A stretch of 64,000 bases of DNA, taken from NCBI RefSeq assembly GCF_053078305.1, contig NZ_CP166879.1. One strand, written 5' to 3'. This document shows, one piece after another, positions 3,069-21,640 of this stretch. The notes beneath the pieces are model-generated. The model did no database searches. It saw only the letters and a list, made by a program, of their open reading frames with translations, and had not been told where the DNA came from. How positions within the stretch are numbered: position 1 is the stretch's first letter; each line of letters starts with the position of its first letter. Position numbers and translations under genes: made by a program.

Positions 3069-5105
3069 ATGAATATACGCAACAATCATCTACCGGGAAC
3101 AGAAACTCTTTTTTCTGAAACTGAAACTGCGAACAGTAAACAACTTGCTGTTTTGAAAACTAACTTTCCACAGTGTTTCGATAAAAACGGAGCTTTCATT
3201 CAGGAAAAGCTGCTTGAGATCATCAGAGCATCAAATGTTGAAATCTCTAAAGAGTCATACTGCTTAAACTGGCTTGGCAAATCCTATGCTCGCCTGCTGG
3301 CTAACCTACCACCAACGACATTGCTGTCAGAAGATAAAGACCATAACCGACGTGAAGAGAACAAGAACAGTCAAAATCTGTTAATCAAAGGGGATAACCT
3401 TGAGGTATTAAAGCATATGGTTAATGCTTATTCTGAAAAGGTTAAAATGATTTATATCGATCCGCCATATAACACGGGTTCTGATGGGTTCGCCTATAAT
3501 GATGATCGCAAATTTACACCAGAACAGCTTTCTGATCTGGCGGGTATCGATCTTGATGAGGCTAAACGTATACTTGAATTTACCACGAATGGTTCAAGCA
3601 GCCATAGCGCATGGTTAACGTTCATTTATCCTCGTTTATATATTGCTCGTGAGCTTCTACGTGAAGATGGTGTGATATTTATTTCGATTGACGAAAATGA
3701 ATTAAATCAACTTAAAACTATTTGTGATGAAATTTTTGGCGAAGCAAATTTCATAGAAAATATTGTATGGAATAAACGTATCCCTAAAAATGATAAGGGT
3801 ATTGGTAATATCCATGAGTACATCCTTGCTTATGCGAAGAATAACGAAATAAGTAAAGAATTTTTAATGCGGAAAGATGGTATTGATGATGTATATCAGT
3901 TTATTGAAAAGTTAAAAAAGGAAAAGGTGCCATTAGATAAAGCAGAGCAGCAACTCAAAAAATTCTACAGCTCCAACGGATATGATCGTGGAATTACTCT
4001 TTACAACGGTTTGAACGAGGATTATAGGCCATGGGGTAAAATTAATATGAGTTGGCCTAATGCAGATTCATTTGGACCCACGTATGAAGTATTGCACCCT
4101 TTGACTAATAACCCTGTCAAAATCCCAGACAGAGGCTGGCGTTGGAAAGAAGGCACTTTTAATCATATTGCAAAAAGAATAGATGGAAAGTATGCAGATA
4201 TCAAAAAACTACATGATGGTAGCGTTATTTGTGGTGGAATTTGGTTTGCCCGTACAGAAAAAACCCAACCCAGTTCGGTTAAATTTTTAGATGAAGTTGA
4301 AGAGTTTTTACTAAGATCAATTATTTCAACTAAAAGTGATGGTGGTGTTGAGGTTGAAAATCTTTTTGGTGGGAAAGGATATTTCTCCTACCCGAAGCCA
4401 ACAAGTTTAATAAAAACACTATTTGGTTCAGTAAGAACCGAAGATAAAGACATTTATCTTGACTTTTTTGCTGGCTCTGGAACTACAGCTCATGGTATTC
4501 TGGAGTTAAATATTGAAGACGGCAGGAAAAGAAACTTCATCTGTGTTCAATTAGATGAAGAAACAGATAAAAAGAAACAAGCCTATAAAGAAGGGTATAA
4601 ATCCATCTTCAATATAACAAAAGACAGAATTATTAAGGCAGGAAAAAAGCTGAAAAAAGATAATCCTAATTATAATGGAGATTTGGGATTTAAAATATTT
4701 GAAACAGTTCATGATTTTCGAGCGAAAGATGAGTCTGAACTTACGCTTTCTAATCTTAGTTTCTTTGACGATGCTGTATTGACACCAGAGCAGTATGACA
4801 CTCTATTGACGACATGGTGCGTGTATGATGGCAGCTTGCTAACAACACCAATTGAAGATATTGACCTTAATGGCTACAAAGCACACTTGTGCGATGGTCG
4901 GCTATATCTAATTGCGCCTAATTTCACAAGTGAGGCTTTGAAAGCTTTACTTCAAAAGCTGGATGCAGACAAAGACTTTGCCCCTAACAAAGTTGTATTT
5001 TATGGCAGCAACTTCGAAAGTGCGAAACAGATGGAACTCAATGAAGCACTAAAAAGTTATGCTAATAAAAAATCTATTGATTTAGATTTGGTGGTAAGGA
5101 ACTAA
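3069..5105 (+). CDS. mod: type III restriction-modification DNA methyltransferase (Mod), N6-adenine
   Basis: 678 aa; IYIDPPYNTG (DPPY catalytic motif) and FFAGSGTTAHG (AdoMet-binding FxGxG); GGAGG RBS 6 nt upstream of ATG 3069; res follows directly. Confidence 0.9.
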   Translation: MNIRNNHLPGTETLFSETETANSKQLAVLKTNFPQCFDKNGAFIQEKLLEIIRASNVEISKESYCLNWLGKSYARLLANLPPTTLLSEDKDHNRREENKNSQNLLIKGDNLEVLKHMVNAYSEKVKMIYIDPPYNTGSDGFAYNDDRKFTPEQLSDLAGIDLDEAKRILEFTTNGSSSHSAWLTFIYPRLYIARELLREDGVIFISIDENELNQLKTICDEIFGEANFIENIVWNKRIPKNDKGIGNIHEYILAYAKNNEISKEFLMRKDGIDDVYQFIEKLKKEKVPLDKAEQQLKKFYSSNGYDRGITLYNGLNEDYRPWGKINMSWPNADSFGPTYEVLHPLTNNPVKIPDRGWRWKEGTFNHIAKRIDGKYADIKKLHDGSVICGGIWFARTEKTQPSSVKFLDEVEEFLLRSIISTKSDGGVEVENLFGGKGYFSYPKPTSLIKTLFGSVRTEDKDIYLDFFAGSGTTAHGILELNIEDGRKRNFICVQLDEETDKKKQAYKEGYKSIFNITKDRIIKAGKKLKKDNPNYNGDLGFKIFETVHDFRAKDESELTLSNLSFFDDAVLTPEQYDTLLTTWCVYDGSLLTTPIEDIDLNGYKAHLCDGRLYLIAPNFTSEALKALLQKLDADKDFAPNKVVFYGSNFESAKQMELNEALKSYANKKSIDLDLVVRN

Positions 5106-5107
5106 TC

Positions 5108-8020
5108 ATGTCTAAAGGGTTCACATTCGAAAAAAATTTACCTCATCAAAAGGCTGGCGTTGATTCGGTAATGAATGTCTTTGTATCCGCCATACCTCAT
5201 CAGACGGATCATGTTGCAATTCGCCTGTTAGCTAATCCAGAACTGAATCTATCTGAACAACAATACTACAACAACATAAAAAATGTTCAGGAGTTCAATG
5301 GTATTGAGCACTCAAAAGATAATTACGATGCTAAAAGCAACGTAATTGATGTTTCTATGGAGACAGGTACAGGTAAAACTTATACTTACACCAAAACAAT
5401 TTTTGACCTGAACAAATCATTTGGTATTAACAAATTTATCATCATTGTTCCTACCCTATCGATCAAAGCCGGAACCGTTAACTTTTTAAAAAGCGATGCT
5501 ATAAAAGAACACTTTCGAGATGATTACGAGCGTGAACTAAAGACTTACGTTGTTGAAAGTCAGAAAAGTTCGGGTAAAAATACAAAATCGTATATGCCTC
5601 AAGCTATCCATGATTTTGTTGAAGCAAGTAATTTCAATAAGAAATATATACACATTCTTGTGATCAACTCAGGGATGATTAACTCTAAGTCTTTAACTGA
5701 CACTTATGATGTTGGCTTGCTTGATAATCAGTTTGATACCCCATTTTCTGCACTTAGTGCGATAAAACCATTCATTATCATTGATGAGCCTCATAAATTT
5801 CCTACTGGTAAAAAGACATGGGAACATATTCAAAAATTTAATGCCCAATATATCATCCGCTATGGCGCAACCTTTAGTGAAGGCTATAAGAACTTAGTTT
5901 ATCGTCTTACAGCCGTAGATGCCTTCAATGAAGATCTTGTTAAAGGTATTGATGCATACATTGAGGATATAGTTGGTGATGGTAATGCCAACCTCAAGTT
6001 GGTCAAATCTGACGGAAAAGAAGCTACATTTGAACTGAACGAAAATAATAATAAAAAAATTTTTAAGTTAGCCAAAGGTGAATCACTATCTAAGACGCAT
6101 AGTGCGATCCATGATTTAACTCTTGATGCTTTAAATAAGAATACAGCAGTGTTGAGTAATGGTATTGAGCTAAAAATTGGTAGTTCGATAAACCCCTATT
6201 CTTACGATCAGACACTTGCTGATAACATGATGCGTAAAGCTGTCAAAGAACACTTTAAGTTAGAAAAAGAGTATCTGACACAAAGGCCACGCATAAAACC
6301 TCTTACTCTTTTCTTCATTGATGACATTGAAGGCTATCGTGATGGTAATGATATTGCAGGAAGCCTGAAAACTAAGTTCGAAGAATACGTTTTGGCAGAA
6401 GCAAATGAACTGTTAAAAACAGAGAAAGATGAGTTTTACAGAAACTACCTTGAAAAAACTGTTAAGGATATATCTTCTGTTCATGGTGGTTATTTTTCAA
6501 AAGATAATAGTGATAAAGATGATAAAATTGAGCAGGAAATCAACGAAATCCTTCATGATAAAGAGCTTCTATTGTCTTTAGAAAATCCTCGCCGTTTCAT
6601 TTTCTCTAAATGGACGTTGCGTGAGGGATGGGATAACCCAAATGTCTTTCAGATTTGTAAGCTCCGTTCGAGCGGTAGCACCACATCTAAACTTCAGGAG
6701 GTAGGGCGTGGTTTACGTCTTCCAGTGAATGAATACATGTGCCGTGTGAAAAACCGCGATTTTACTCTCAACTATTATGTTGATTTTACGGAAAAAGATT
6801 TTGTTGATTCTCTTGTAAAAGAGGTTAATGATAGTTCTTTCAAAGAAACTGTTCCAGGTAAGTTTACTCAAGAACTTAAGGATAAAATCTTATCTCAGTA
6901 TCCTGAGCTTTCATCCAGAACACTCATGAATGAGATCTTTGATGCTGAAATTATTGATGATAATGAAAACTTCAAAGATTCCGATGCCTATAGCCGTTTA
7001 AAAGCAAAATATCCGGCTGCATTCCCTACCGGGGTGAAACCAACAAAAATAAAAAAAGCCACGGATGGAAAAAAGCGTACTAAAATGCGTATTGGTAAGT
7101 TCAGTGAGTTGAAAGAACTATGGGATTTGATCAATCAAAAAGTAGTAATTGAGTATAAAATAAATAGTGAAAATGAATTCTTATCCATTTTCAAATCATT
7201 CATGATTGAAGAAACAGATAGATTTACTAAATCAGGTGTTCATACTCGCATTGATAGAATTTATATTCATAATGATACGGCGATGTCGAAAAGTATCGTC
7301 AGTGACGATGATAACTTTGCTAAACTAAACACAATGAGCTATCGGGAATTTCTTGATAACTTATCACAAACTATTTTTGCTAAACACGATACCTTACATA
7401 AGGTTTTTTGTGATATAAAAGACACTATCAATATCACCGACTACCTGAACATTCAGACAATCAGAAAGATTAAATCTGGGTTTAGCAAGTATTTGTTGAA
7501 CAATTCATTTAACAAATTCAGCCTTGGATATAATGTAATTTCAGGCTCAATTCATCCTACAAAATTCACTAATGCAGACGGTAATCACCTGCATGAGGTA
7601 TTATCAGGTGATCTTGGAGTATTACAGGATAATACAAAAGCCCCCCTAGACTCTTATCTTTTTGAAGAAGTTTTTTATGATTCAGAGCTTGAAAGACTCA
7701 ATATAACAGACGGAGAGATCCACTCTGTTGCTGTTTTTACAAAGATACCGAAAAACTCAATTAAAATTCCAGTGGCAGGTGGATACACATATTCTCCTGA
7801 CTTTGCTTATGTTGTAAAAACAACAAAGGGTGACTACCTTAACTTTATTATTGAAACAAAAAATGTCGAAGGTAAAGAAAGTTTACGTAAAGAAGAACTG
7901 GATAAAATAAAGCATGCACAAAAACTTTTCGAACAGGTAAGTAAATCTGTAAAAGTAACTTTTATAACTCAATTCTCAGGTGACAGAATCCATGATCTGA
8001 TAAAAAATGTGATTCAGTAA
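5108..8020 (+). CDS. res: type III restriction enzyme Res subunit (SF2 helicase-nuclease)
   Basis: 970 aa; helicase motif I METGTGKTYT and motif II IIIDEPHKF; ATG 3 nt after the mod stop. Confidence 0.9.
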   Translation: MSKGFTFEKNLPHQKAGVDSVMNVFVSAIPHQTDHVAIRLLANPELNLSEQQYYNNIKNVQEFNGIEHSKDNYDAKSNVIDVSMETGTGKTYTYTKTIFDLNKSFGINKFIIIVPTLSIKAGTVNFLKSDAIKEHFRDDYERELKTYVVESQKSSGKNTKSYMPQAIHDFVEASNFNKKYIHILVINSGMINSKSLTDTYDVGLLDNQFDTPFSALSAIKPFIIIDEPHKFPTGKKTWEHIQKFNAQYIIRYGATFSEGYKNLVYRLTAVDAFNEDLVKGIDAYIEDIVGDGNANLKLVKSDGKEATFELNENNNKKIFKLAKGESLSKTHSAIHDLTLDALNKNTAVLSNGIELKIGSSINPYSYDQTLADNMMRKAVKEHFKLEKEYLTQRPRIKPLTLFFIDDIEGYRDGNDIAGSLKTKFEEYVLAEANELLKTEKDEFYRNYLEKTVKDISSVHGGYFSKDNSDKDDKIEQEINEILHDKELLLSLENPRRFIFSKWTLREGWDNPNVFQICKLRSSGSTTSKLQEVGRGLRLPVNEYMCRVKNRDFTLNYYVDFTEKDFVDSLVKEVNDSSFKETVPGKFTQELKDKILSQYPELSSRTLMNEIFDAEIIDDNENFKDSDAYSRLKAKYPAAFPTGVKPTKIKKATDGKKRTKMRIGKFSELKELWDLINQKVVIEYKINSENEFLSIFKSFMIEETDRFTKSGVHTRIDRIYIHNDTAMSKSIVSDDDNFAKLNTMSYREFLDNLSQTIFAKHDTLHKVFCDIKDTINITDYLNIQTIRKIKSGFSKYLLNNSFNKFSLGYNVISGSIHPTKFTNADGNHLHEVLSGDLGVLQDNTKAPLDSYLFEEVFYDSELERLNITDGEIHSVAVFTKIPKNSIKIPVAGGYTYSPDFAYVVKTTKGDYLNFIIETKNVEGKESLRKEELDKIKHAQKLFEQVSKSVKVTFITQFSGDRIHDLIKNVIQ

Positions 8021-8103
8021 ACACATGCATGATAACAAAGTGGAGGTGGTTTCACCCCCACTTTATAATTATACACACATCACAAAATTCGCAGGTGAGT
8101 TCA

Positions 8104-8802
8104 ATGACAACATGTTCTGAACTGAAGGAAAGAGCCCGTTTTGATGGTATGCATGATGCTTCTCTTGAAGTGGCATGGCAATTACTTATGACGAAAAGTG
8201 TATCCACTATTACTACTGAGATAATATCCGGTGCAGACATGTCCAATTTTTCAGTGATTATCAGGGAACGATATAAACATGCAATAGCAAAATCTCTTCT
8301 CAATCATTTATCTCCCGATGTTGTTTCTGACATCATCGGTTTATCTCATGATGAGTTCAATCAACAATATAAAGGCAATTTAACCAGACAACAACACCTG
8401 AGAGATATTGCTGTAAGTTTAACAGATAAAGGATTCACAGAATCATCTGCATGTAATATTGTCAACCTGGACCTAATGTTACTTCCTGAAGAAAACTGGT
8501 TACTTTATAAAGAAAATTACAATACAGGATATCAGGATGCACTTTATAAATCCGTATGGAGAATGCACACATACGAATATCCAACAGCAACCATCAGTTG
8601 TTTGACAAAATTAAATAATGAAAATATATTAAATATTATTACAGGTATAGAAGTAATACTCCTCGCAGCAAAAAAACCTGCATGTAAAGACAGAACAGAT
8701 AAAATTGCTGAAATGCTGAAAATACCATTCTCTGTCGTCAAAGAATTTATTGATGAACAGGCTTTATTGAACAAATCAAACATTCAGGGAACTGGCAGTT
8801 GA
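8104..8802 (+). CDS. hypothetical protein downstream of res
   Basis: ORF 8029..8802; in-frame ATG at 8104; no recognisable motifs; AT-rich like the R-M genes. Confidence 0.35.
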   Translation: MTTCSELKERARFDGMHDASLEVAWQLLMTKSVSTITTEIISGADMSNFSVIIRERYKHAIAKSLLNHLSPDVVSDIIGLSHDEFNQQYKGNLTRQQHLRDIAVSLTDKGFTESSACNIVNLDLMLLPEENWLLYKENYNTGYQDALYKSVWRMHTYEYPTATISCLTKLNNENILNIITGIEVILLAAKKPACKDRTDKIAEMLKIPFSVVKEFIDEQALLNKSNIQGTGS

Positions 8803-8848
8803 ACAAAACGCCAGTCCGAAGACTGGCGCAGTGATAAAACATTCTGCA

Positions 8849-9535
8849 TCATGCCACATTCTGCTCCTGAAGATGACGCAGACGATGGTCCCAGTTTCCC
8901 AGGTAATGCCCGGGCGTCAGCAGTACGCGGCGTCGCTCATTACAGAGCGAGTTACCAATCACCACTTCTCCGGCCACACCACACAACGACAGTTGTATAT
9001 ACGCCATGCCGGCTGCCAGCGGGTCAATATCCGTTGCCGACACCCACATCCTGCGATATGCCGGATACCCCGAACGGTTCAGGGTGTCAGCCATTGCCAG
9101 AATCATACTGCCGGCACCACAGGCAGGTTCACTGAGCGTGATAAAGGGTTTGTTCTCAAACAACGCCTTCACATCTCCCATCTGCATCTGTGCCATCATG
9201 CTGGCAACACTCCAGGGCGTGAAAAACTGACTCCGGTATTTATCCCCCAGTTCCAGTTGCATGAACACACTCCCCAGAAAATCACAGACTCCCTGCTCCA
9301 GTCCCTCAATGACATGAGCAAGCAAATGCGCAATGTGGATAACATCCTGCTTTTCATAACCACTGACGATCCGCAGATACTTCTGTTCCCGGGCCTCACT
9401 GAACTGAAGCCGGTTTTCCAAGGCAATCACACTACAGCTGACAAAGTCTTCAAACACCTTATGACGTTTGTGATAACAGGCTGTCCGGTTAAACAACGAA
9501 ATGAACTCCTTCTGATGGTCAGTCATGGTGGCCAT
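8849..9535 (-). CDS. N6-adenine methyltransferase-like protein (possible orphan or antirestriction methylase)
   Basis: 228 aa; SQFFTPW and EPACGAGS resemble amino-MTase motifs X and I; no clear NPPY/F catalytic motif seen. Confidence 0.45.
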   Translation of the reverse strand: MATMTDHQKEFISLFNRTACYHKRHKVFEDFVSCSVIALENRLQFSEAREQKYLRIVSGYEKQDVIHIAHLLAHVIEGLEQGVCDFLGSVFMQLELGDKYRSQFFTPWSVASMMAQMQMGDVKALFENKPFITLSEPACGAGSMILAMADTLNRSGYPAYRRMWVSATDIDPLAAGMAYIQLSLCGVAGEVVIGNSLCNERRRVLLTPGHYLGNWDHRLRHLQEQNVA

Positions 9536-9572
9536 GTTTTCTCCGTAAAAACAGGGAACACATGGCCCGGAC

Positions 9573-9590
9573 AGGGGAACAGGTGTTCCC
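9573..9590. promoter_or_regulatory. GC-rich palindrome GGGGAACAGGTGTTCCCC upstream of 8849..9535
   Basis: perfect 18-bp palindrome about 40 bp upstream of the gene start on the minus strand. Confidence 0.4.
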
Positions 9591-9646
9591 CTTCGGGTTG
9601 AAATGTTGATAAAACGGGCATCACGGACATGATACCCGGAGGTTAA

Positions 9647-10594
9647 TTACTGGGCTGAGACCAGAGGAACCGGTAAAGGTGCGGCTTTCGTCTGTTCTTC
9701 AGCGCACTCCTCCACCAGGTACAGTCGGGGCTGTGGAAGTGTTTCCCTGCCCGGCCATTCGGCCTGCAGATCACTGTCCGTATGCTCTCCGCCATCGTAA
9801 CAGTTGTAACCCTGTATACCGTGTACCGGCTCGCTGTACCAGTGTCGGACCTCGCAGTCAAACACCTTCGAGATCTCACCAACCAGTTCGCCTGAAGGCG
9901 GATACCAGGGCGTGTCGATCAGCAGCACCAGACTGCTCATCTCATCACGCGCATGGCGAACATTATTTCCTGACGGCCACTCCACACCGTATATCCGGCT
10001 GTAAAGGCTGGTCGTTGTGGAAATACCCTGCAGCAGTCCACCTGAACCATTCAGCTCTGTAGCCAGACGGGAGGGTATGACCATCAGCATGTCACAGGGC
10101 TGCGCCTGTTCCGGGTAATCCGACAACCAGCTCCAGCAGGCTTCTGCATCAATGTGTTCACTCAGCCCGGCCAGACCAAACCAGTCAGAATACTGACGGC
10201 TCATCAGCGTGGTGATGATCTCCCTGGCATTATCCGGCAGATTACCCCAGCGAACAGCGCCGATACATGACTGGTGATAAAGACGCTCAATGGTCTTTAT
10301 CGTTTCACCATCCAGAACGGCATTTTTTACCAGCAACCCCAGCCACTGCTCAAACGCCTGGTTAGCCGGAGATGACAACCCCGTTCCGTGACGAACCAGC
10401 GCCGGATATGGCGGATACTGCGTCGTCCGTGTGGGTTTTACCAGCCCTGCACAACCGGCCAGAAACAGCTGTATACTCTGCTGTATGGCATGACGGTAGC
10501 GCGGGGTCTCACGCCCTTCAATCCACTGTGTAAGTACATCAAGACAGACTGATTTACCGGTAATTTCAAAACGGTTTTTGCACCATTCAGACAT
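9647..10594 (-). CDS. hypothetical protein
   Basis: 315-aa ORF; no family recognised. Confidence 0.5.
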   Translation of the reverse strand: MSEWCKNRFEITGKSVCLDVLTQWIEGRETPRYRHAIQQSIQLFLAGCAGLVKPTRTTQYPPYPALVRHGTGLSSPANQAFEQWLGLLVKNAVLDGETIKTIERLYHQSCIGAVRWGNLPDNAREIITTLMSRQYSDWFGLAGLSEHIDAEACWSWLSDYPEQAQPCDMLMVIPSRLATELNGSGGLLQGISTTTSLYSRIYGVEWPSGNNVRHARDEMSSLVLLIDTPWYPPSGELVGEISKVFDCEVRHWYSEPVHGIQGYNCYDGGEHTDSDLQAEWPGRETLPQPRLYLVEECAEEQTKAAPLPVPLVSAQ

Positions 10595-10630
10595 TGTTTA
10601 CGCTCCTCTTTTTTATACAGATGTAAAAAG

Positions 10631-10668
10631 AGGGCATTGTCCCGTGAGGTACAATGCCCTCACGGGAA
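10631..10668. promoter_or_regulatory. palindromic element, family A (CCCGTGAGG-ACAATGCCCTCACGGG)
   Basis: complex inverted repeat about 40-70 bp upstream of start 10594; near-identical copy at 11468-11500. Confidence 0.45.
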
Positions 10669-10677
10669 AACGGGGTA

Positions 10678-10992
10678 TCACGCCCCGTTGTTGCGGATAA
10701 AACCCTGCAGCCAGGCAGTTCGCTCAGGGCCATACCGCCTGTTGACATTCATCAGTTCGTCTGCAGACGGATTGATGAAAAGGTTGTAGTACCAGAGCTC
10801 TTCCTTTAAATCCGCCAGGTTCCCCCTGCCGGTCCTGAGCCACTCCTGTACAACATCCCTGATTTCAGATGTGACATCTCCACGGTAATTTGACGTGATC
10901 GTAACATCTGCCAGTAATTCACTGATATTTCCTGCTATCAGACACGGTTCAGAGATCCCGTTACAGAACCAGACAAGGCATTTACCAGCCAT
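10678..10992 (-). CDS. hypothetical protein
   Basis: 104-aa ORF in a co-directional array; no family recognised. Confidence 0.4.
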   Translation of the reverse strand: MAGKCLVWFCNGISEPCLIAGNISELLADVTITSNYRGDVTSEIRDVVQEWLRTGRGNLADLKEELWYYNLFINPSADELMNVNRRYGPERTAWLQGFIRNNGA

Positions 10993-10995
10993 ACC

Positions 10996-11433
10996 TTACC
11001 TCCTGTATTTGCTGGTATTTATCCCGATCTCGTTTATGGCTACGGATATGTTGCCCGGAAAACGCGCTGTTTCAATCTTCTCCAGCTCGTTTTTCCGGTA
11101 ACGCTCCACGGTCACACTCAACGGGACGTTCCCCTGTCCGTACTCTTTACGAAGGCGATCAATACACTCCTGTACCAGTTCATCGCTGAAATAACGGGAT
11201 TCAAGCACAGACAGCAGCCCGTCTTTATTCTCAAACCCCTCTGTGACAGAGCGTACTTCGGCCTCCGTTGGACCATCCAGCCAGCTCACCCACACATTGT
11301 TGAAAACTTTCGGGAAAGATGGATCGCATTTCCGCACAGAAAATTTCTGTCCCGGAAATGTATACGCCAGCACATCCCTGATACGGGCCACAACAGCATC
11401 GTCAACATCAACCAGTGCGTTATCGTTCATCAC
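10996..11433 (-). CDS. hypothetical protein
   Basis: 145-aa ORF; starts 4 nt after the stop of the downstream gene; preceded by a family-A palindrome. Confidence 0.45.
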   Translation of the reverse strand: MMNDNALVDVDDAVVARIRDVLAYTFPGQKFSVRKCDPSFPKVFNNVWVSWLDGPTEAEVRSVTEGFENKDGLLSVLESRYFSDELVQECIDRLRKEYGQGNVPLSVTVERYRKNELEKIETARFPGNISVAINEIGINTSKYRR

Positions 11434-11467
11434 TCAGTTCCTCTGTAATCCTGAAATAACAGAGAGC

Positions 11468-11500
11468 ACTGCCCCGTGAGGGACAATGCCCTCACGGGAT
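11468..11500. promoter_or_regulatory. palindromic element, family A
   Basis: CCCCGTGAGGG-ACAATG-CCCTCACGGG: 10-bp perfect stem with 6-nt loop, about 40-65 bp upstream of start 11433. Confidence 0.45.
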
Positions 11501-11539
11501 AAATGGCGGTCAGGTTATAACCGCCACCGGTAGTAAAAA

Positions 11540-12517
11540 TTATGCTGCGCACTCCTGCGAAGTTCGCCGCGTCAGTAAATACTCTGATGCTTCACGTGCC
11601 TGCCGGCAGGCGCGAAACAGCGCTTTTTTGTCAGACTTCAGAACCTTAAGCCATCCGTCAATATAACTTTCGTGCTGTACGTCACCGGCAATCCCGAGAT
11701 GTGCACACAGAAAAGCACTGCCCATCTCGGCAATCAGCTCTTCAAACGCATATTCCGGGCTTTTGCGACCGGTAAAGGTACTTATCCCCACCCGCCGCAG
11801 GCGCTTTTCATGACCGGTACTGTGTACCAGCTCATGCAGCAGGGTGGCCTGGTAATCAGCCACCTGGTCAAACTGCGACGACAGTGGCATCACGATACGG
11901 TCAAGATCAGGCCGGTAGAATGCCCTGTCCTGTGGAAGTGACGAGACGCTGACGCCGCTGCCATTCAGTACCTGCAGCACCCGCTCACTGAAGGTATCTG
12001 CCGGCAGTGCATCCGCGCTGCCTTCCGCCTTCACCATCAGATGTTCAGGTAAACCGTCACACTGCCCCACATTAAACAGAGGATTCGATTTCAGTACCGG
12101 TACGATTTCCATGAGAGGCTCCCCCTCACTGTCCGTCAGCCGGTTACCGTGTTCATCCACAGCCTGTTTTTTCCAGTCTTTGTAAATCACCGCCAGCGTG
12201 GCCACCTCCCCTTTACGGACGTGGCCACCCAGTTGTTGCGCCTGACGGTACGTCAGCCAGTCATTGCTGACATACCCGGCTTCATCCGCGGCCAGCCACA
12301 GCAACAGGACGTTCACCCCTGTATAAGGCTTCCCGGTCAGGGCATTTGCCGGCATCATCTCCGGAAGCCCCACGCCATTACGCGCAGAGCGCCAGGGACG
12401 TTTCCAGGGTGGCACACCATTTTCAATGGCCGTAACAACCCTGTCGGTCACAAGCTGATACAGGTCACGTTCCGGAGTTTTAATCGCGGTACGTGAAGTA
12501 TGTTTTTTCGTTTTCAT
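11540..12517 (-). CDS. ardC: ArdC-like antirestriction protein (ssDNA-binding N-domain plus zincin-like metallopeptidase domain)
   Basis: C-terminal HExxH motif LLHELVHSTGHE; overall resemblance to ArdC/DUF1738; ORF 11540..12616 but ATG at 12517 (MKTKKHTSRT) with AGGGGG RBS is the likelier start. Confidence 0.7.
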   Translation of the reverse strand: MKTKKHTSRTAIKTPERDLYQLVTDRVVTAIENGVPPWKRPWRSARNGVGLPEMMPANALTGKPYTGVNVLLLWLAADEAGYVSNDWLTYRQAQQLGGHVRKGEVATLAVIYKDWKKQAVDEHGNRLTDSEGEPLMEIVPVLKSNPLFNVGQCDGLPEHLMVKAEGSADALPADTFSERVLQVLNGSGVSVSSLPQDRAFYRPDLDRIVMPLSSQFDQVADYQATLLHELVHSTGHEKRLRRVGISTFTGRKSPEYAFEELIAEMGSAFLCAHLGIAGDVQHESYIDGWLKVLKSDKKALFRACRQAREASEYLLTRRTSQECAA

Positions 12518-12550
12518 AAGAGCATGCCCCCTGAAAAAGATGCACGCTCC

Positions 12551-12576
12551 CTGTACGGTGAGAGTGCACCGTACAG
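12551..12576. promoter_or_regulatory. perfect inverted repeat CTGTACGGTG-AGAGTG-CACCGTACAG upstream of ardC-like gene
   Basis: 10-bp perfect stem about 35-60 bp upstream of the ATG at 12517. Confidence 0.4.
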
Positions 12577-12609
12577 TTAAATTAATAACGAAAATCAGAC
12601 TGGCCAGAA

Positions 12610-12993
12610 TTACCACAACGCCAGCATCACCAGTGAACGACGCTCAAAATCAAACGTCTTCAGCGTATTGCTGACCCACGCTTTTACGTCATCCACGTCA
12701 TACCAGTAATCACCGGCATAATCTTCCCCCCGTAAACACGAGCCTGTGACATAAGGAAACAGCCTGTGGCAGTTCCCCGGTGTCAGCATACTGAGGTCGC
12801 GCAATAATGCAGCCAGTGAACTGCGGGTTACAGGGAAAGCATGCTGCTCATCTGAAGCACCGGTATGTTCACGAAACCATGTCAGAAGAGGTTTCACCTT
12901 ACGGAAAGCCCCCACCTCCTGATGTTCCTGTGTTCCCACAACGGCACCACTGTGATGGTTATCACGAGCCAGAAAGTAAATATCGAGTCCCAT
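12610..12993 (-). CDS. hypothetical protein
   Basis: ORF 12610..13029; ATG at 12993 (MGLDIYF) has an AGGAGA RBS; palindrome CAGGGATATGTCCCTG at 13029-13044 lies upstream. Confidence 0.4.
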   Translation of the reverse strand: MGLDIYFLARDNHHSGAVVGTQEHQEVGAFRKVKPLLTWFREHTGASDEQHAFPVTRSSLAALLRDLSMLTPGNCHRLFPYVTGSCLRGEDYAGDYWYDVDDVKAWVSNTLKTFDFERRSLVMLALW

Positions 12994-13108
12994 AACAATT
13001 CTCCTGAATAAAGCCGGGACTCTCCCCACAGGGATATGTCCCTGCCGGGTGATATAATGACGGAATACGTGATGACGTTATTCCGGATAAAGAAACTACG
13101 GCGTTCTG

Positions 13109-13738
13109 TTACCGCCCACCGGCAAGAGCCCGCAGCCAGTAAAGCTGATATTCGGCCTCTTCCAGTGCTGCCCAGTCATCCGGGGATAACTGTCGCCCCT
13201 GACCGGACAAAAACTGCAGCAGTAAGCTGTCAAACACATCTCCCCTTACCAGGGTGGTTAATACAGACTCCGGAGCAGAAAAATTCTCATGCCCCAGGTA
13301 CCGTTTTATCCATTTCAGCGGCAGCGACCAGCTGGCACCACCGACAGTGGAATGAATACGAAAACAGTCCGGACACAGATTGTGCAACAGCACAAAGACT
13401 GTACGGGCAAAGAAATCTCCCGGCTGACGTCCGAAATTCAGCTCATTAAGAGCCAGAATATTCCGGCTGTGCTCCCGCTCAATAGTGACATTCACCGACC
13501 ACAGCCCGTCGGCAGACCGGCAGTAAAACGCCAGCGTGTCCGTTACCGGAAACAACTCTGACGCCCGGGTCAGGGAGCCGAAATACGCATTCTGCGGCCG
13601 TAACGCCTCCGGCAACTGCCAGAAGGTTTCAGTGGCAGCCAGAACAAAAGCATGCCACTGCTTTTCCGGTATTGTGGAAACCTGCTCAAGGGTATATACC
13701 ACCGGCTCACGGGCCGGACGTGAAGATAACTCAGACAT
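13109..13738 (-). CDS. hypothetical protein
   Basis: ORF 13109..13768; ATG at 13738 (MSELSSRPA) has a GAGGAA RBS. Confidence 0.45.
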   Translation of the reverse strand: MSELSSRPAREPVVYTLEQVSTIPEKQWHAFVLAATETFWQLPEALRPQNAYFGSLTRASELFPVTDTLAFYCRSADGLWSVNVTIEREHSRNILALNELNFGRQPGDFFARTVFVLLHNLCPDCFRIHSTVGGASWSLPLKWIKRYLGHENFSAPESVLTTLVRGDVFDSLLLQFLSGQGRQLSPDDWAALEEAEYQLYWLRALAGGR

Positions 13739-13790
13739 GGAACATTCCTCATGGTTAAAACGAAACAACGGGGAATGTCTCCCGGACGGA

Positions 13791-13817
13791 GAACTCCCCC
13801 GTCAGGGTCAGGTCATG
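13791..13817. promoter_or_regulatory. palindromic element, family B variant (CCCGGACGG-AGAACT-CCCCCGTCAGGG)
   Basis: imperfect inverted repeat about 50-80 bp upstream of start 13738. Confidence 0.35.
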
Positions 13818-13819
13818 AA

Positions 13820-14197
13820 TTACATCATGTCGTGCCGGGCAAAATATTCATCCGCTCCGGCCACCATCTTTCCGGTACTGATACTGTCAGCCCAGATTTC
13901 ATGATTAATTTCACGCCCCAGAGCCATCAGACTGTCGAGTGCCTGACGGGCCTGAATTCCCGGTGCGGAAATCTCCTCCTGCTCCAGGTCATACAACAGC
14001 CAGCCCAGCGCCTCGCCGGTATCCCACAGATACACGTATACCAGTGAAGGCTCCGTCTCATCATCCGGCTCCGGGGTAATACCCAGCCGTTGCCAGGCTC
14101 GTAACCGCATCAGCTCGCCTTCCATCTGACTGATATGAGCCAGCAGAGCAGACTGCGTCTGAAGCGCTGAATAATGAGCAATTAAAGGTGAATACAT
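13820..14197 (-). CDS. hypothetical protein
   Basis: 125 aa; ATG at 14197 with a GGAGG RBS. Confidence 0.45.
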   Translation of the reverse strand: MYSPLIAHYSALQTQSALLAHISQMEGELMRLRAWQRLGITPEPDDETEPSLVYVYLWDTGEALGWLLYDLEQEEISAPGIQARQALDSLMALGREINHEIWADSISTGKMVAGADEYFARHDMM

Positions 14198-14227
14198 GAT
14201 GACCTCCGTCTCTTAAAGGAAGTCCTG

Positions 14228-14257
14228 TCCCTGACGGAACAAAACTCCCGTCAGGGA
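14228..14257. promoter_or_regulatory. palindromic element, family B (CCCTGACGG-AACAAAACT-CCCGTCAGGG)
   Basis: 9-10 bp stem with an A-rich loop about 30-60 bp upstream of start 14197; near-identical copy at 15379-15406. Confidence 0.45.
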
Positions 14258-14509
14258 AAACACCGGCGCAAAAACACGGTGCAGTAAGTAAAAGAAAAAC
14301 CGTTACGGGAGCAAAACAGCCATCATTGCAAAATGGCAGTTGCATCGCTCACGATTTGACATCCTTCCTGTGACTGACTGGCATCCTGCCCGTCAGTCTG
14401 CGTCGGAAAATTCAATACAGGCCTGCTTCAGGAGCCCGGCTATACGTTGATTCAGACATTCCGTCCAGCCATCGTTCCATCCACGCTCCCATGGATTGCA
14501 GACATCCTC

Positions 14510-14872
14510 CTATGGATTGCAGACATCGTTACAGCCATTCTTCCATGTCTTCCATGCCTCCATCTCCATGACAGCCCCCAGCCTGTGGCCTTTCACACGT
14601 ATATGCCACAGAAACGGCCGGAAAAGTCCTGATTTCAGTTGGTCACCACCGCTTTTGTAGCCCAGATGACATGCAACACTTTCAGTATATTCAAATGCAT
14701 CATTCTGCATTCCAGCCGCCTTAGCCAGCGAGCTGTACGCATCACGAAGTATCGTCATACCTTCCAGTTGATACTCACACCACGCACGGACAGCCGACAC
14801 TGGTGCGATTACCCGAAGAATGGTGCAGGGACGCCATACAACAATGTAAAGGAGTATTAACAGACTATGCAT
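14510..14872 (-). CDS. hypothetical protein (weak call)
   Basis: 120-aa ORF preceded by palindrome GGGAACACAC...GTGTTCCC (14900-14933); no family recognised. Confidence 0.25.
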   Translation of the reverse strand: MHSLLILLYIVVWRPCTILRVIAPVSAVRAWCEYQLEGMTILRDAYSSLAKAAGMQNDAFEYTESVACHLGYKSGGDQLKSGLFRPFLWHIRVKGHRLGAVMEMEAWKTWKNGCNDVCNP

Positions 14873-14954
14873 GTGTTCACCTCAGATACAAAAAATAACG
14901 GGAACACACCTGCCTTGCGGGAAGCGTGTTCCCGACAGGGTAATAAATGATAAA

Positions 14955-15293
14955 TCAGCAGGGCTGTGCGACGATTCCATCACCCTGCAGACCAAACCGG
15001 TAACGCAGGGTGGTCAGTTGCTCCGCCATACGGCAGGCAGCATGCCATGTCCTGCGACGGGATATCCGTCCGGTAAACCGGTTCAGATAAATGACCTCAC
15101 GCGGTAACGGCTGATACCATCCTGTGTACTCGTTGCGATACATTCCCTGCCGGTAATACAGGCAGGGTGTCCAGACACCGCCACGACGGAACATACAGAC
15201 CCGCACGCTCAGATTGCCGGCCGGATTAGTGTACCAGCGACTGTAATATGACAGGTTATTGCGGGAAAAAAACACCCGCAACTGAGCCGTCAT
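14955..15293 (-). CDS. hypothetical protein (weak call)
   Basis: ORF 14955..15515 runs through a palindrome; internal ATG at 15293 is the more plausible start. Confidence 0.2.
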   Translation of the reverse strand: MTAQLRVFFSRNNLSYYSRWYTNPAGNLSVRVCMFRRGGVWTPCLYYRQGMYRNEYTGWYQPLPREVIYLNRFTGRISRRRTWHAACRMAEQLTTLRYRFGLQGDGIVAQPC

Positions 15294-15378
15294 TCGCCGG
15301 AAAAAAGAAGAGATGCCCGGTTCAGGGCACAAAATAAACGTTGACATAAAGACTCCTGTAAAAAAACGGGAGCCTTCG

Positions 15379-15406
15379 CCCCGACGGACAAAAACTCCCG
15401 TCAGGG
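15379..15406. promoter_or_regulatory. palindromic element, family B (CCCCGACGG-ACAAAAACT-CCCGTCAGGG)
   Basis: read directly; same architecture as 14228-14257. Confidence 0.45.
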
Positions 15407-15450
15407 TTAAAACACCACCAGTACAGCATGGTGTTGCTGTCAGAAAAAGC

Positions 15451-15706
15451 CCGTTAATAAAGGGCGCAGTTATAAAGAAACCTTCATCGTCATGACTGAC
15501 GATATCTGCTCTCAAAGGTGGGCAGATTTACCACCACCAGAAACATCCTGGCTGCACATCCCCTTTCAGGTTACGGGGGTGTTGATCACCCGAAGGCGTT
15601 CCTCTCAGATCAACGGAACATTGGTGCCCACCGAAGCGGGATGTGGTCACCCGAAGGCGCTCCTCTCAGACCACTTATGGAGCATTGGTGGTCGCCGAAG
15701 CGACAT
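15451..15706. repeat. direct repeat copy 1 (~255 bp) flanking the recombinase cassette
   Basis: near-identical to 17784..18037 by eye; contains tandem ~63-bp hairpin units. Confidence 0.85.
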
Positions 15707-15770
15707 GTAGCCACCCGAAGGCGCTCCTCTCAGGCCACTTGTGGAGCATTGGTGGTCGCCGGAGCGACAT
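15581..15770. repeat. tandem array of three ~63-bp structured units
   Basis: units begin at about 15581, 15643 and 15707; each opens with a 6-7 bp stem (TTGATC/GATCAA; TGGTC/GACCA) around the conserved loop ACCCGAAGGCG(C/T)TCCTCTCA. Confidence 0.8.
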
Positions 15771-15812
15771 ATAAGCCTGTATATTTTTAAATCACAAAAG
15801 ATGAATGTCAAG

Positions 15813-16136
15813 TTATTCAACATCAATCCAAAGAGGAATATTATGTATTCCCTTAACGGGTTCTCCCAGAGGAAAAACACAGGTCCCTTTAATCAGTATT
15901 TTTCTTCCCGACCATCTGACATCACAGTTAAAATCTCCCACCACATCAAAATAATCCGCAATGGATTCATAGATGTCCCATTCATCATAGATATCCCATT
16001 TATCTGCTGTTCCTTCACATTCAAACTCGGCCTGATATCCGGAATCAACATATCGCGCCAGATAGTGTGACCACAAAGGCGAATTTTTTGTAATCTCTTT
16101 TACAGAGATTATTTTCAGCAAAATAGTACAATCCAT
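15813..16136 (-). CDS. hypothetical protein downstream of recombinase
   Basis: 107-aa ORF, AT-rich, acidic; no family recognised. Confidence 0.35.
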   Translation of the reverse strand: MDCTILLKIISVKEITKNSPLWSHYLARYVDSGYQAEFECEGTADKWDIYDEWDIYESIADYFDVVGDFNCDVRWSGRKILIKGTCVFPLGEPVKGIHNIPLWIDVE

Positions 16137-16168: not shown

Positions 16169-17071
16169 TTACTCATAGCCTAACAACTGACAATAAACCT
16201 GTTCAATATATCGTCCTCTGCCATCACCATGACCAAGATCAATTGATGTCAGTGCAAGTGCCTCCTTATAACTGTAACCGTTCATAATATGATATTTCAT
16301 GGCACTTGCAGCGTAACTGTACCGAAAACTGTGTGCAGTCTCATCTCTGCCTTTCAGTTCTCCATAACGACGTAATGTATTAAGATAATAATCCATTGCC
16401 GACTTAAGATTATCTCTGTCTATAAGACGTCCATTATGTTCACTGGCATATTTGAGTGCATAATTAACAGCATCAAGAACGTTATCCCGGTCAACAACCG
16501 TTGTCATTCTTTCCCGTCCCCCTTTCGTACCAAAAATCACTCTTATTTTTTCATCTCCCCGTTGTAACGCTTTTTTCCAGGTTCGTAATGATTTGGCCGA
16601 CTGGATAGCTTCTTCATTTCTCAGACCGAGGTAACGTGACAGTTTAACAACAGCAGCCACCCCTTTATCTTTTGCTTCCACACGCTGAAGAATCTCCCGA
16701 AAACGCTCATCCGTGATTAATTTTTTTGTTCCCTTACGACTGGAGCCGGAAATGCCTAACGCTTTATTGCTGAGACGAGGATGTTCGGGATCAGCCATCT
16801 TATATTTACCTGCCTGACGTAACATAACCCGTATTGCAGACATTTCATTTTCCCTTGTTCGCCCAGAAACATTATTCCGGCTTCTCATATATAGCTCAAT
16901 ATGCCGGACTTTTACCTGCGCGGCAGAACTGATCTGTACATTCATTTTTGCCAGACTTTCAGCAAAGCGGTGCATGATCCTGGTGTAATCACTCAGCTTC
17001 TTGAAGCTGCCTTTGTCTTTTCGAATGTGAGCAACCAGATCCTGTTTCAGTAATTTTTCACGTCTGGACAT
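16169..17071 (-). CDS. tyrosine site-specific recombinase (phage-integrase family, ~300 aa)
   Basis: C-terminal catalytic signature HSFRYSYA ... LGHGDGRGRY (HxxR ... Y) and box-I-like RYLGLRNEE; ORF starts with GTG at 17086, ATG at 17071 has an AGGAG RBS. Confidence 0.85.
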   Translation of the reverse strand: MSRREKLLKQDLVAHIRKDKGSFKKLSDYTRIMHRFAESLAKMNVQISSAAQVKVRHIELYMRSRNNVSGRTRENEMSAIRVMLRQAGKYKMADPEHPRLSNKALGISGSSRKGTKKLITDERFREILQRVEAKDKGVAAVVKLSRYLGLRNEEAIQSAKSLRTWKKALQRGDEKIRVIFGTKGGRERMTTVVDRDNVLDAVNYALKYASEHNGRLIDRDNLKSAMDYYLNTLRRYGELKGRDETAHSFRYSYAASAMKYHIMNGYSYKEALALTSIDLGHGDGRGRYIEQVYCQLLGYE

Positions 17072-17120
17072 CAACTTCTCCTGCACATAATAATTTTTAC
17101 CTTAAACAGCTGTACGTTCG

Positions 17121-17171
17121 GCAGATGAGTTTTTCTGTTGTGCCGTGAACACAACAGAAAAACTCATCTGC
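17121..17171. promoter_or_regulatory. 22-bp perfect inverted repeat upstream of recombinase gene
   Basis: GCAGATGAGTTTTTCTGTTGTG - CCGTGAA - CACAACAGAAAAACTCATCTGC, 50-100 bp upstream of start 17071. Confidence 0.5.
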
Positions 17172-17783
17172 ATTTCTCCCTGACGACACGGTTAAACGTT
17201 GCGATCCTTCGGGTAGTGACTGCCTGTGCGCCAGGGTAGCGCAGATTGTTTAGGTATTGAGGGGTAACAAATCGGTGTTGCACACCGACTGCAGCATTTG
17301 CTGTACCTGTCTCCAGGTCGCCCCCGACACCACCTCTAATAAGTGGTATCGCCGATTCGGCATCTCACTACATAAAACTCCTTAAAAAAACAATTGATTC
17401 TGCAAAAAACCATTTATGGACGTTATTCACAAAATCGTCCGTAAATTTGCAGAAGAGGTTGAAAAAACACTCTCACGCCGGGTCACTTCTTCAAATGTTA
17501 AAAAACATCACGTGAAACGGCAGTTCGTGCGGGTTCGTTAAGCAGACGCGCGTGCGTCACTTTGTCATCGTGACACGCTGACGAAAGTGACGCCGCGCAG
17601 CTTCAGACGCCAGATACACGCGTAAGCGACCAAATTTCAAATGGTCTTATACAGCGCGCACAGTCGCAGGAAGTGCTGGCAAACAAATGAAAAGAATAAA
17701 AGAAGTCAATACCGCCATTACGCAGTAAGAACATTCCGGCATCACCGGATGGATAAGGATCACACAACCACTGCTGTGTATTG

Positions 17784-18037
17784 CCCGTAATAAAGGGCGC
17801 GGTTAAAAGAAACCTTCATCGTCATGACTGACGATATCTGCTCTCAAAGGTGGGCAGATTTACCACCACCAGAAACATCCTGGCTGCACATCCCCTTTCA
17901 GGTTACGGGGGTGTTGATCACCCGAAGGCGTTCCTCTCAGATCAACGGAACATTGGTGCCCACCGAAGCGGGATGTGGTCACCCGAAGGCGCTCCTCTCA
18001 GACCACTTATGGAGCATTGGTGGTCGCCGAAACGACA
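17784..18037. repeat. direct repeat copy 2 (~255 bp) with two tandem ~63-bp units (17913-18037)
   Basis: near-identical to 15451..15706. Confidence 0.85.
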
Positions 18038-20643: not shown

Positions 20644-21601
20644 GTCTTCATCCTCATCAGCAGCTCTTCAGTGGATAACATCCACAGTTACACCTGCATT
20701 TACGCGCAACAAAAACACCAGATGAAGATTTTATTCATTCAGCTCCGCTAAAAATTAATCTTGCTGTGGAATATCGGGAAAACAGGAAGTTACGTTAAAA
20801 GCCGAAGGAAAAACTCACAATCCCTTCTTCAATCAGCCTCTGAAAATCGGCTTTTCAGCATGTCTTCCCCCATTGTTCGTATACCCTGTTCGATGGATTA
20901 TTATTGATCCATATGATCGCTTCACGTAAACACGATTCTGGCTCCACACCATTCTGGACGCGATTGTTACCAAAAAAGACAACCATCACAAGACGTCACA
21001 GACGGTGCGTGCGCTTACTCCTGTATATCTGGCGCAACAGAATCTACCAGTGTAAACTCTCTATGCTTTTGCGCAGAAGCAGTGGGCCTGGGTTCGCTTA
21101 TGTCCTGCATCTACAAGCGAATGACTGACCAGAGACTCCCATATCTGGTCAGTCGCCCATTTTTATTTTCCCTATACACTCAGACTACAATAGCCGTAAC
21201 AAACAGCATACCCCCAGTCATAGTGGCCCCTTTATCTTCTTATGGCTTGTCTGTGGTACTGGAGATAGAGCAACTGTGGGAGTACTGTTATGGCCCCCGG
21301 TAAGAAAAACTCTTGCTTAATGTACAGCAGAACTGTTCCCAGAAAGAAGCCTGTGCATATTTTCATAGAAGGAGATCACCCATAACGGCGTTTTTCACGG
21401 TAATACACGCCAGGTAAAGAATGCTGGATTATCAATCAAAGCTCCGCACAGGAAGCGCTTATGCCGTAGAGCGCCCTCTGGAGAAAAGTGCTACTTCTTG
21501 TCGATTCAGACTAGTTCAGGAAATTATACGAAAATATTACCTGAATGAGCTAAATGTTATTTACCTTCCTTTCTGTTCATTGTAAATTTTTTCTTGCTAA
21601 C

Positions 21602-21620
21602 GCAAATCATTATCATTACG
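21602..21620. promoter_or_regulatory. Fur-box-like sequence upstream of TonB-dependent receptor
   Basis: GCAAATCATTATCATTACG contains AATCATTATC, matching half of the Fur consensus GATAATGATAATCATTATC; about 20 bp upstream of the ATG. Confidence 0.55.
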
Positions 21621-21640
21621 ATTTTAGAAAAGGGAAATTT

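Follow-up and report, generated by a model that had tools for sequence, protein, structure and literature searches.

A predicted mRNA leader, anchored at the start codon, recurs along a STAXI-headed anti-restriction operon of an Escherichia coli integrative conjugative element

The 64,000-nucleotide (nt) stretch of contig NZ_CP166879.1 (NCBI RefSeq assembly GCF_053078305.1) analysed here, hereafter the window, belongs to a chromosomal island of Escherichia coli, an integrative conjugative element (ICE) of the MPF-G (ICEclc/YAPI/SGI-4) type. On its minus strand it carries what reads as one operon (8808–15811), in which a promoter, a STAXI RNA array, ten genes and a terminator follow one another. 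An initial annotation, made from the sequence alone, had described GC-rich palindromes upstream of almost every gene in this cluster. Conserved base pairing and a shared layout indicate that these palindromes are copies of one mRNA leader of 60–75 nt that is anchored at the start codon. The leader stands before nine of the ten genes, and we think that it probably serves as a modular, cis-acting attenuator of the individual gene, with added translational damping, repeated before each cistron of the STAXI-led operon.

Architecture of the leader

From 5′ to 3′, the leader consists of a GC-rich hairpin (P1), a segment termed Seg3, a T-run, an A-rich stretch, the Shine-Dalgarno (SD) sequence and the start codon. 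P1 is formed by Seg1 and Seg2, is usually closed by CC...GG, and has a 9–11-bp stem and a 5–9-nt loop. Seg3 is complementary to the inner 5′ arm and the loop of P1, and the hairpin that they can form (P2) is followed by the U-run, which gives it the shape of a terminator. Seg3 can instead pair with the SD/AUG region of the downstream gene (P3). Because P1 and P2 share nucleotides and the connecting loops are too short, we model them as alternative structures: P1 and P2 are predicted to be mutually exclusive, and likewise P2 and P3. A pseudoknot in which P1 and P2 form together was rejected on the inferred geometry, which leaves 0–3 nt between strands where at least 6 are needed.

In the DUF1281 leader, P1 pairs CCCGTGAGG with CCTCACGGG, P2 pairs GAGGGCATTGT with ACAATGCCCTC and is followed by TTTTT, and P3 pairs CCCTCTTTTT with AAAAAGAGG. 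The minimum free energy (MFE) fold of the h130 leader is a 20-bp P2-type hairpin followed by U7 (TTTTTTT at 15370–15364), and the h120 leader has a long hairpin followed by UUAUUUUUU, with the T-rich TTATTTTTT after 14899. The initial annotation was right that strong hairpins lie upstream of nearly every gene (sense-strand z-scores of −1.7 to −6.8 against dinucleotide shuffles). Its two palindrome families resolve into three (CCTGACGG.., CCCGTGAGG.. and GGGAACAC..) plus two singletons, all of them one structural motif. The presence of the palindromes in homologous clusters had been set as a test of the pattern, and they are present across several genera: the same order of elements is found in clusters of Rosenbergiella, Yersinia, Acerihabitans, Hafnia, an Enterobacterales metagenome-assembled genome and several metagenomic contigs.

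Covariation, strand bias and position

Across 61 leaders, 94.9% of P1 pairs are canonical, and a single column may show as many as six pair types. In an alignment fitted to the covariance model, 87.0% of cells are paired, against 69.7% in shuffles. Its covariation score of 0.278, compared with 0.104 in shuffles, was not equalled by any of 500 shuffles, and slid controls stay at no more than 0.08. A structure-blind MAFFT alignment of orthologues has 91.9% of P1 paired; on the same kind of alignment P2 is 81.9% paired, with a covariation score of 0.344 against 0.249 (1 of 500 shuffles). Cognate Seg1′/Seg3 duplexes of the 61 leaders have a mean energy of −15.2 kcal/mol, compared with −9.0 kcal/mol for non-cognate ones (0 of 5000 permutations).

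Many P2 pairs are G-U, and for this reason the helix is the more stable on the sense strand in 54 of the 61 leaders. The MFE of the whole leader is likewise lower on the sense strand in eight of nine cases (mean −28.7 vs −24.0 kcal/mol). P1 lies at a median of 61 nt from the start codon, with a standard deviation of 6.5, whereas its spacing from the upstream stop codon varies with a standard deviation of 66.8. Strand bias, U-run and SD/AUG pairing together favour RNA over single-stranded DNA (ssDNA) as the level at which the leader works.

Specificity of the covariance models

Scanning for hairpins with an energy threshold of −13 kcal/mol gave too much noise in GC-rich coding DNA, and covariance models were used instead. 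A three-sequence DUF1281 alignment led to five genome loci, and further loci were reached via contigs that encode homologues. The first model, R1, was built solely from 11 orthologous DUF1281 leaders, and it also matches leaders of unrelated genes: 61 unique sense-strand matches end exactly on a start codon (open reading frame, ORF, of at least 50 codons). A generalised model, R2, was rebuilt from 54 matches. At E ≤ 1, its matches within the window lie solely in 9533–15405, where it recovers eight of the nine leaders.

The R2 searches covered ~396 kb in total, on both strands, and gave matches only inside these clusters. There were none in 40 kb of cargo and type IV secretion system DNA flanking the cluster of the related locus L001, none in the plasmid leading regions L017 and L019 or in L022, and none in the sil genes adjoining the SGI-4 cluster. 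Dispersed chromosomal repeats of the repetitive extragenic palindrome/bacterial interspersed mosaic element (REP/BIME) type were ruled out on this confinement. The ends of R2 matches coincide with start codons that were called independently or by the Prokaryotic Genome Annotation Pipeline (PGAP) in L012–L016 and L024–L026. In SGI-4, which had no part in model building, four of five sense-strand R2 matches end on PGAP start codons.

Comparison with Rfam 15, at E ≤ 1 for the window and E ≤ 0.5 for five further loci, gave no family for the leaders, and the literature that we found on STAXI, EFASI and radC RNAs holds no description of them. Terminator/antiterminator alternatives and SD masking are familiar devices; their repeated, cassette-like deployment behind STAXI is unfamiliar.

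Terminator character and proposed mode of action

The region contains 26 terminator-like sites, against 9.6 ± 3.4 expected. The absence of U/A-tracts reported in the initial annotation, from which it concluded that the palindromes do not look like simple terminators, does not hold: a T-run (at least five T in seven) follows Seg3 in 44 of 61 leaders, and 38 of 61 have at least five T in the 9 nt after the stem. These U-runs had been overlooked because they follow P2, not P1. When the RNA is truncated at the U-run, a P2-type hairpin is the MFE fold in 49 of 61 leaders, while the full-length leader usually folds as P1+P3.

From the motif with its specificity, start-codon anchoring, P1/P2 covariation, sense bias and U-runs, we infer termination and read-through, and what might tip their balance. 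With RNA polymerase on the U-run, P2 would be the most stable fold and would favour termination. Persistence of P1, or a terminator-resistant polymerase, would allow read-through; the full leader would then settle into P1+P3 and partly mask the ribosome-binding site. The outcome would be graded expression down the operon and silencing of leaky expression.

Several points weigh against this account. Termination, read-through and masking are predictions, and P2 may rarely win a kinetic competition in which the stable P1 forms first. About a quarter of the leaders have a weak U-run or none, h125 and h127 in the window being examples. P3 pairs are 79% canonical with little covariation, and the paired probability of the SD sequence exceeds that of 35 control genes only modestly (0.71 vs 0.56, one-sided p = 0.03). 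Pairing counts from the large alignments are inflated by fitting to the model, model E-values are rough owing to a shortened calibration, and the ArdC leader of the window goes undetected by the model. Strong SD sequestration was set aside, given the modest excess over control genes.

By eye, the ArdC leader has the common architecture, with P1 formed by CTGTACGGTG and CACCGTACAG, Seg3 reading GGAGCGTGCATC, and TTTTT. Its counterpart in E. coli UMNK88 scores 12.6 bits with R1, and a compensatory U-A to C-G change separates the two.

Attenuators and the expression platforms of riboswitches resemble the leader in their exclusive helices, of which one hairpin precedes a U-run, in a further helix that pairs the ribosome-binding site, and in their place in the 5′ leader of the regulated cistron. 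Unlike them, the leaders show no evident aptamer, leader peptide, known ligand or protein partner, match nothing in Rfam 15, and are repeated before nearly every gene instead of standing once at the head of the operon.

Alternative explanations

The leaders could be ordinary intercistronic hairpins, that is, weak terminators, stabilisers of the 3′ end of the upstream message and possibly RNase processing sites, with neither a switch nor a translational role. GC-rich stems with U-runs and the excess of terminator-like sites fit this explanation, as does SD masking that is merely modest, and the AU-rich P3 loops could be RNase E sites. We nevertheless hold it to be rather unlikely: the motif is anchored to the downstream start codon and not to the upstream stop codon, and the overlapping P1 and P2 are both kept by compensatory change, where a plain terminator needs only one helix.

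Modularity of the cluster raises the question of recombination. UMNK88 lacks the LPD29 gene and h104, which in the window lie between two copies of one hairpin family, and its ArdC-DUF1281 spacer is a hybrid whose junction falls within the shared CCCGTGAGG hairpin. The loci G6/7 and NC101 have other gene orders or contents, only ArdC-DUF1281-methyltransferase is constant across genera, leaders persist while gene order and content vary between loci, and leader families reassort relative to the genes. The varying gene order, the constant ArdC-DUF1281-methyltransferase set and the hybrid spacer indicate that the leaders also mark joints of module exchange, probably through homology between repeated leaders. 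That the leaders are at bottom DNA-level joints, either attC-like cassette boundaries for the adjacent Integrase_1-type tyrosine recombinase or mere homology, which shuffle anti-defence modules, is improbable even with a recombinase gene adjoining the cluster. Four properties of the leaders belong to the RNA level: their U-run, their pairing with SD/AUG, the G-U bias of the sense strand and their fixed spacing from the start codon. Direct repeats of 26–40 bp suffice for ordinary homologous deletion. Integron cassettes share with the cluster co-directional, promoter-less genes split by imperfect palindromes beside a tyrosine recombinase, with modules gained and lost at the palindromes. In the cluster, however, the palindromes lie 5′ of the genes and have RNA-level features, the recombinase is of the Integrase_1 (PF12835) and not the IntI type, and no attC-like conserved core sites (RYYYAAC ... 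GTTRRRY) were seen on reading the nine leaders by eye, without a formal attC model. As a side effect, such joints are compatible with leaders that attenuate their genes.

A third explanation takes the leaders for ssDNA structures on the transferred strand, namely Frpo-like promoters, priming (ssi) signals or hairpins that protect the DNA during entry. Frpo/ssi elements are long (~200–330 nt) imperfect hairpins with −35 and −10 hexamers in the stem; the known Frpo elements were reportedly described by Masai and Arai in 1997 as long hairpins carrying −35/−10 sequences. Like Frpo/ssi promoters (PMC11541004), the leaders are hairpin-forming intergenic elements before anti-defence genes, possibly near a transfer origin, but they differ in size, promoter hexamers, strand bias and sequence. 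The context is leading-region-like, and a role in ssDNA was raised for the neighbouring STAXI motif by its discoverers (PMC2864571). We give this explanation little credence. Leaders of 60–75 nt without −35/−10 hexamers do not look like promoters of the ssDNA type that the initial annotation had suggested, they fold better on the coding-sense strand whereas transcription from ssDNA needs the template strand to enter, and SD/AUG pairing and the U-run have no DNA rationale. Plasmid leading regions (L017/L019) have intergenic regions of 300–680 nt with other hairpins and no model matches. In leading regions of IncI/F-type plasmids with a DUF1281 homologue (L017/L018, 8600–12100 and 15700–18300), the 300–680-nt intergenic regions share a CGGCG(Y)AAGCCG hairpin, which is probably of the Frpo type, unlike the ICE leaders.

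Finally, the palindromes could be operators, each recognised upstream of its gene by a DNA-binding regulator, a reading which the initial annotation had also offered. Palindromic sequences whose families recur within one locus would suit it, yet it is very improbable: stems are unrelated between leaders and genera and vary freely while pairing is kept, through up to six pair types per position, which speaks strongly against a protein operator, and no promoters accompany the palindromes.

The operon and its STAXI array

The unit assigned to 8849–15515 by the initial annotation has to be extended, on one side to the promoter and STAXI (15476–15811) and on the other to the terminal intrinsic terminator (8808–8829). 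The site TTGACA-17-AAAAAT is the sole minus-strand promoter-like site near the cluster, and none lies within 8849–15515. The Rfam STAXI model (RF01728) matches 15476–15641 with 75.7 bits against a gathering score of 40.5, and Tandem Repeats Finder reports 2.9 copies with a period of 64 at 15587–15770. Promoter sequences differ among the 14 STAXI copies examined, but in all of them the best −35/−10 pair ends 11–14 nt upstream of the first base of STAXI. Given a promoter at this fixed distance in all 14 copies, STAXI looks like the 5′ end of a primary transcript and is probably the 5′ leader of the operon. A strong terminator directly after STAXI was rejected as a general feature: it is present in the window and weak in L010, L012 and L013.

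STAXI heads the cluster in every relative examined, with the radC motif in its place in L016. In this metagenomic relative, radC (RF01754) lies at 566–712 and 2394–2544, ahead of genes with the same leaders. Upstream of the operon, the second STAXI copy, EFASI and then an integrase-domain gene (16169–17086) follow one another, the arrangement behind EFASI's name. A homologue of the integrase-domain gene has Integrase_1 (PF12835) and Phage_int_SAM_2 domains; the gene of the window itself had no NCBIfam match. A perfect inverted repeat, its 22-bp arms 7 nt apart (GCAGATGAGTTTTTCTGTTGTG / CACAACAGAAAAACTCATCTGC, 17121–17171), is located between the start of the integrase-domain gene and EFASI, and an 18-bp tandem repeat of 2.1 copies (15967–16004) lies inside the small ORF h107 (15813–16136), between that gene and STAXI. 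STAXI, EFASI (RF02957) and radC accompany anti-restriction and integrase genes (PMC2864571, PMC5587801), and STAXI and EFASI RNAs have been seen by RT-qPCR in vesicles of Shiga-toxin-producing E. coli (PMC12370729). The leaders share loci with these RNAs, in clusters each headed by STAXI or radC. They differ in being separate elements downstream of STAXI, and the nine leaders have no match to those models at E ≤ 1.

STAXI and the leaders might form one RNA control system, in which the promoter-proximal pseudoknot array of STAXI would act in cis on polymerase for read-through of the terminator before each gene, or as an SD mimic that frees masked sites, with the hairpins also serving as joints of cassette exchange. 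We regard this combination as an outside chance, and the link to STAXI-driven antitermination as speculative. The put RNA of phage HK022 is a parallel for antitermination in cis. Conjugation operons of Gram-positive bacteria contain many internal terminators that are overcome by processive antitermination (pLS20 conAn, PMC8191782, PMC8955417; Tn916, PMC11658703). Common to all of these and the operon described here are a long element operon punctuated by intrinsic terminators, predicted ones in the present case, and a structured RNA right after the promoter. Those systems, however, are Gram-positive or phage systems, each with a demonstrated factor, whereas antitermination in the STAXI operon is only a candidate. 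Unlike in pLS20 conAn, the first gene after STAXI is not conserved and so indicates no protein partner; a conserved partner encoded there, as conAn1 is in pLS20, was rejected, the first gene differing between loci.

Table 1. Features of the operon and of the DNA directly upstream of it, in the direction of transcription. Energies are for the sense strand; R1 and R2 are scores with the two covariance models.
Feature	Position	Strand	Details
Second STAXI copy	17872–18037	minus	91 bits; TTGACG-17-TATGCT promoter-like site ends 14 nt before
EFASI	17214–17371	minus	53.2 bits
Sigma70-like promoter, TTGACA-17-AAAAAT	15783–15811	minus	10/12 hexamer matches; −10 ends 14 nt before first STAXI hairpin
STAXI RNA array	15476–15770	minus	64-nt units with UUCG hairpins
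h130 leader	15345–15405	minus	R2 44.9 bits; −30.5 kcal/mol, z −5.2; terminator-scan match
h130	14955–15347	minus	130 aa, no family
h120 leader, GGGAACAC family	14870–14939	minus	R2 19.2 bits; −26.7 kcal/mol, z −3.3
h120	14393–14872	minus	120 aa after truncation; relatives 152–159 aa (alignment with related locus L001)
h125 leader, CCTGACGG family	14195–14255	minus	R2 38.5 bits; −27.0 kcal/mol, z −3.9
h125	13820–14197	minus	125 aa; PHROG family of unknown function, no Pfam match
h209 leader, CCTGACGG family	13736–13806	minus	R2 35.9 bits
h209	13109–13738	minus	209 aa, no family
h127 leader	12991–13049	minus	R2 32.8 bits
h127	12610–12993	minus	127 aa; PHROG family of unknown function
ArdC leader	12515–12576	minus	−32.3 kcal/mol, z −6.5 (second-best); missed by the model in the window
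ArdC-family antirestriction protein	11540–12517	minus	HELVH metalloprotease motif
LPD29 leader, CCCGTGAGG family	11428–11498	minus	R1 55.1 bits, R2 60.1 bits
LPD29-domain gene and h104	10678–11430	minus	two-gene module: LPD29 10996–11430, h104 10678–10992, 3 nt apart
DUF1281 leader, CCCGTGAGG family	10592–10666	minus	−33.2 kcal/mol, z −6.8; clearest example of P1, P2 with U5, and P3
DUF1281 protein, api92-like	9647–10594	minus	PDB 2IJR api92, 2e-117
Extra hairpin, then UUUUAU	9615–9638	minus	just 3′ of DUF1281 stop codon
Leader of methyltransferase-like gene, GGGAACAC family	9533–9596	minus	R2 19.6 bits; −27.3 kcal/mol, z −3.9; predicted P3 pairs SD and AUG
N6-methyltransferase-like protein, truncated, without motif IV	8849–9535	minus	228 aa
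Terminal intrinsic terminator	8808–8829	minus	UUCG loop, U-rich tail, 3′ of last gene

Genes of the cluster

Ten co-directional minus-strand ORFs lie within 8849–15347, in keeping with the nine to ten counted initially, and PGAP annotates the same ten genes in a 99.1%-identical locus of the best-matching E. coli genome (as N-6 DNA methylase, DUF1281, hypothetical, LPD29, ArdC and five hypotheticals).

The ArdC-like assignment of the initial annotation is confirmed by a PHROG anti-restriction family (2.5e-80) and by R388 ArdC (PDB 6I89/6SNA, 6e-60 over residues 16–315). An ArdC homologue has both the ArdcN and the MPTase-PolyVal domain. The two parts that define the family, an N-terminal ssDNA-binding domain and an HExxH metalloprotease domain, are thus recognisable in the sequence, and the predicted identity is secure. 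A methyltransferase-like protein without a catalytic motif had also been recognised correctly. It keeps motif X (QFFTP) and motif I (EPACGAG), has GNSL/GNAL in place of (N/D)PP(Y/F) (motif IV is absent in 7 of 7 homologues), and ends ~30 residues beyond; its Pfam N6_Mtase match spans only model positions 24–118 of 311. By its sequence, the 228-aa 'methylase' is very unlikely to be an active methyltransferase. One family, phrog_23459 (649 positions), matches both the C-terminal part of ArdC and the methyltransferase-like protein, which suggests that the two may be fused in some elements.

That the remaining genes belong to no recognisable family holds for most of them, but not for LPD29 and DUF1281. 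The latter resembles api92, which we take to come from the Yersinia YAPI island. No Pfam family was found for h130, h125 or h209, the predicted structure of h209 was a low-confidence model without a fold match, and a homologue search with h127 returned near-identical E. coli proteins only. Comparison of the cluster proteins with PADLOC and NCBIfam gave no matches except weak methyltransferase ones. The truncation of h120 comes from a 21-bp tandem duplication at 14490–14531 (GATGTCTGCAATCCATAGGAG / ..GGGAG), which brings in a TAG stop. Domains of the 'polyvalent proteins' of conjugative elements were reportedly described by Iyer and colleagues in 2017. The ArdC, LPD29, DUF1281 and methyltransferase-like modules match R388 ArdC, YAPI api92 and such domains; unlike in polyvalent proteins, the modules of the window are separate small genes, each with its own leader.

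The island and its relatives

Nineteen complete E. coli genomes contain a 6.8-kb stretch of the cluster at 99% identity, and diverged copies occur in 117 of 5426 complete E. coli genomes, at a median of one place per genome; a search of a plasmid collection gave no close DNA match to the cluster. In the best-matching genome, the cluster has upstream of it an 'integrase domain' gene together with ICE genes of the TIGR037xx series, and the window has TIGR03755 at 57101–58525. STAXI and radC RNAs are abundant in the MPF-G (ICEclc) family of ICEs (PMC5587801). The same module is carried by Salmonella SGI-4, a characterised ICE (PMC6543542).

The leading-region character proposed initially stands in part. 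Gene content and the synteny of relatives speak for an establishment/anti-restriction module of a conjugative element: relatives of DUF1281 (35–40% identity) lie in true plasmid leading regions beside ArdA, PsiB, PsiA, ParB_N and DUF932, and occur in more than 5000 enterobacterial plasmids. The cluster of intact relatives is oriented, on the same strand, towards a TraI_2 (MOB-H) relaxase and the end of the element, a geometry like that of F leading regions. The copy in the window is a putative leading region at most: neither a relaxase nor an oriT was found in the window, and L001 likewise gave no TraI_2 relaxase.

Where relatives have the relaxase, the window has a type III restriction-modification system on the plus strand (region 3069–8802), convergent with the anti-restriction operon and directly past its last gene. 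It comprises a mod-like gene (3069–5105) and res (5108–8020; NF012027, 1073 bits), followed by a 257-aa ORF without identity (8029–8802). The small RNA STnc100 (RF02076) matches at 852–1054 on the minus strand (138.7 bits), and the cargo of the island (21554–28694 and 52716–53768) includes an IreA-type siderophore receptor, a 1454-aa trimeric autotransporter adhesin and an IS110-family transposase.

Significance

ICEs of the MPF-G family, among them YAPI, SGI-4 of pandemic Salmonella ST34 and islands of Shiga-toxin-producing E. coli, spread virulence, metal-resistance and defence genes. The leader is a practical marker in these islands for gene starts and for uncharacterised candidate anti-defence genes. 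As a motif it is well delimited, has dozens of covarying instances and is open to direct mutational testing. STAXI, EFASI and radC are RNA motifs that have lacked a function since 2010 and 2017, and the architecture of promoter, STAXI and leaders suggests what STAXI might act on. If true, a system of STAXI plus leaders would give a function to STAXI, an orphan motif since 2010.

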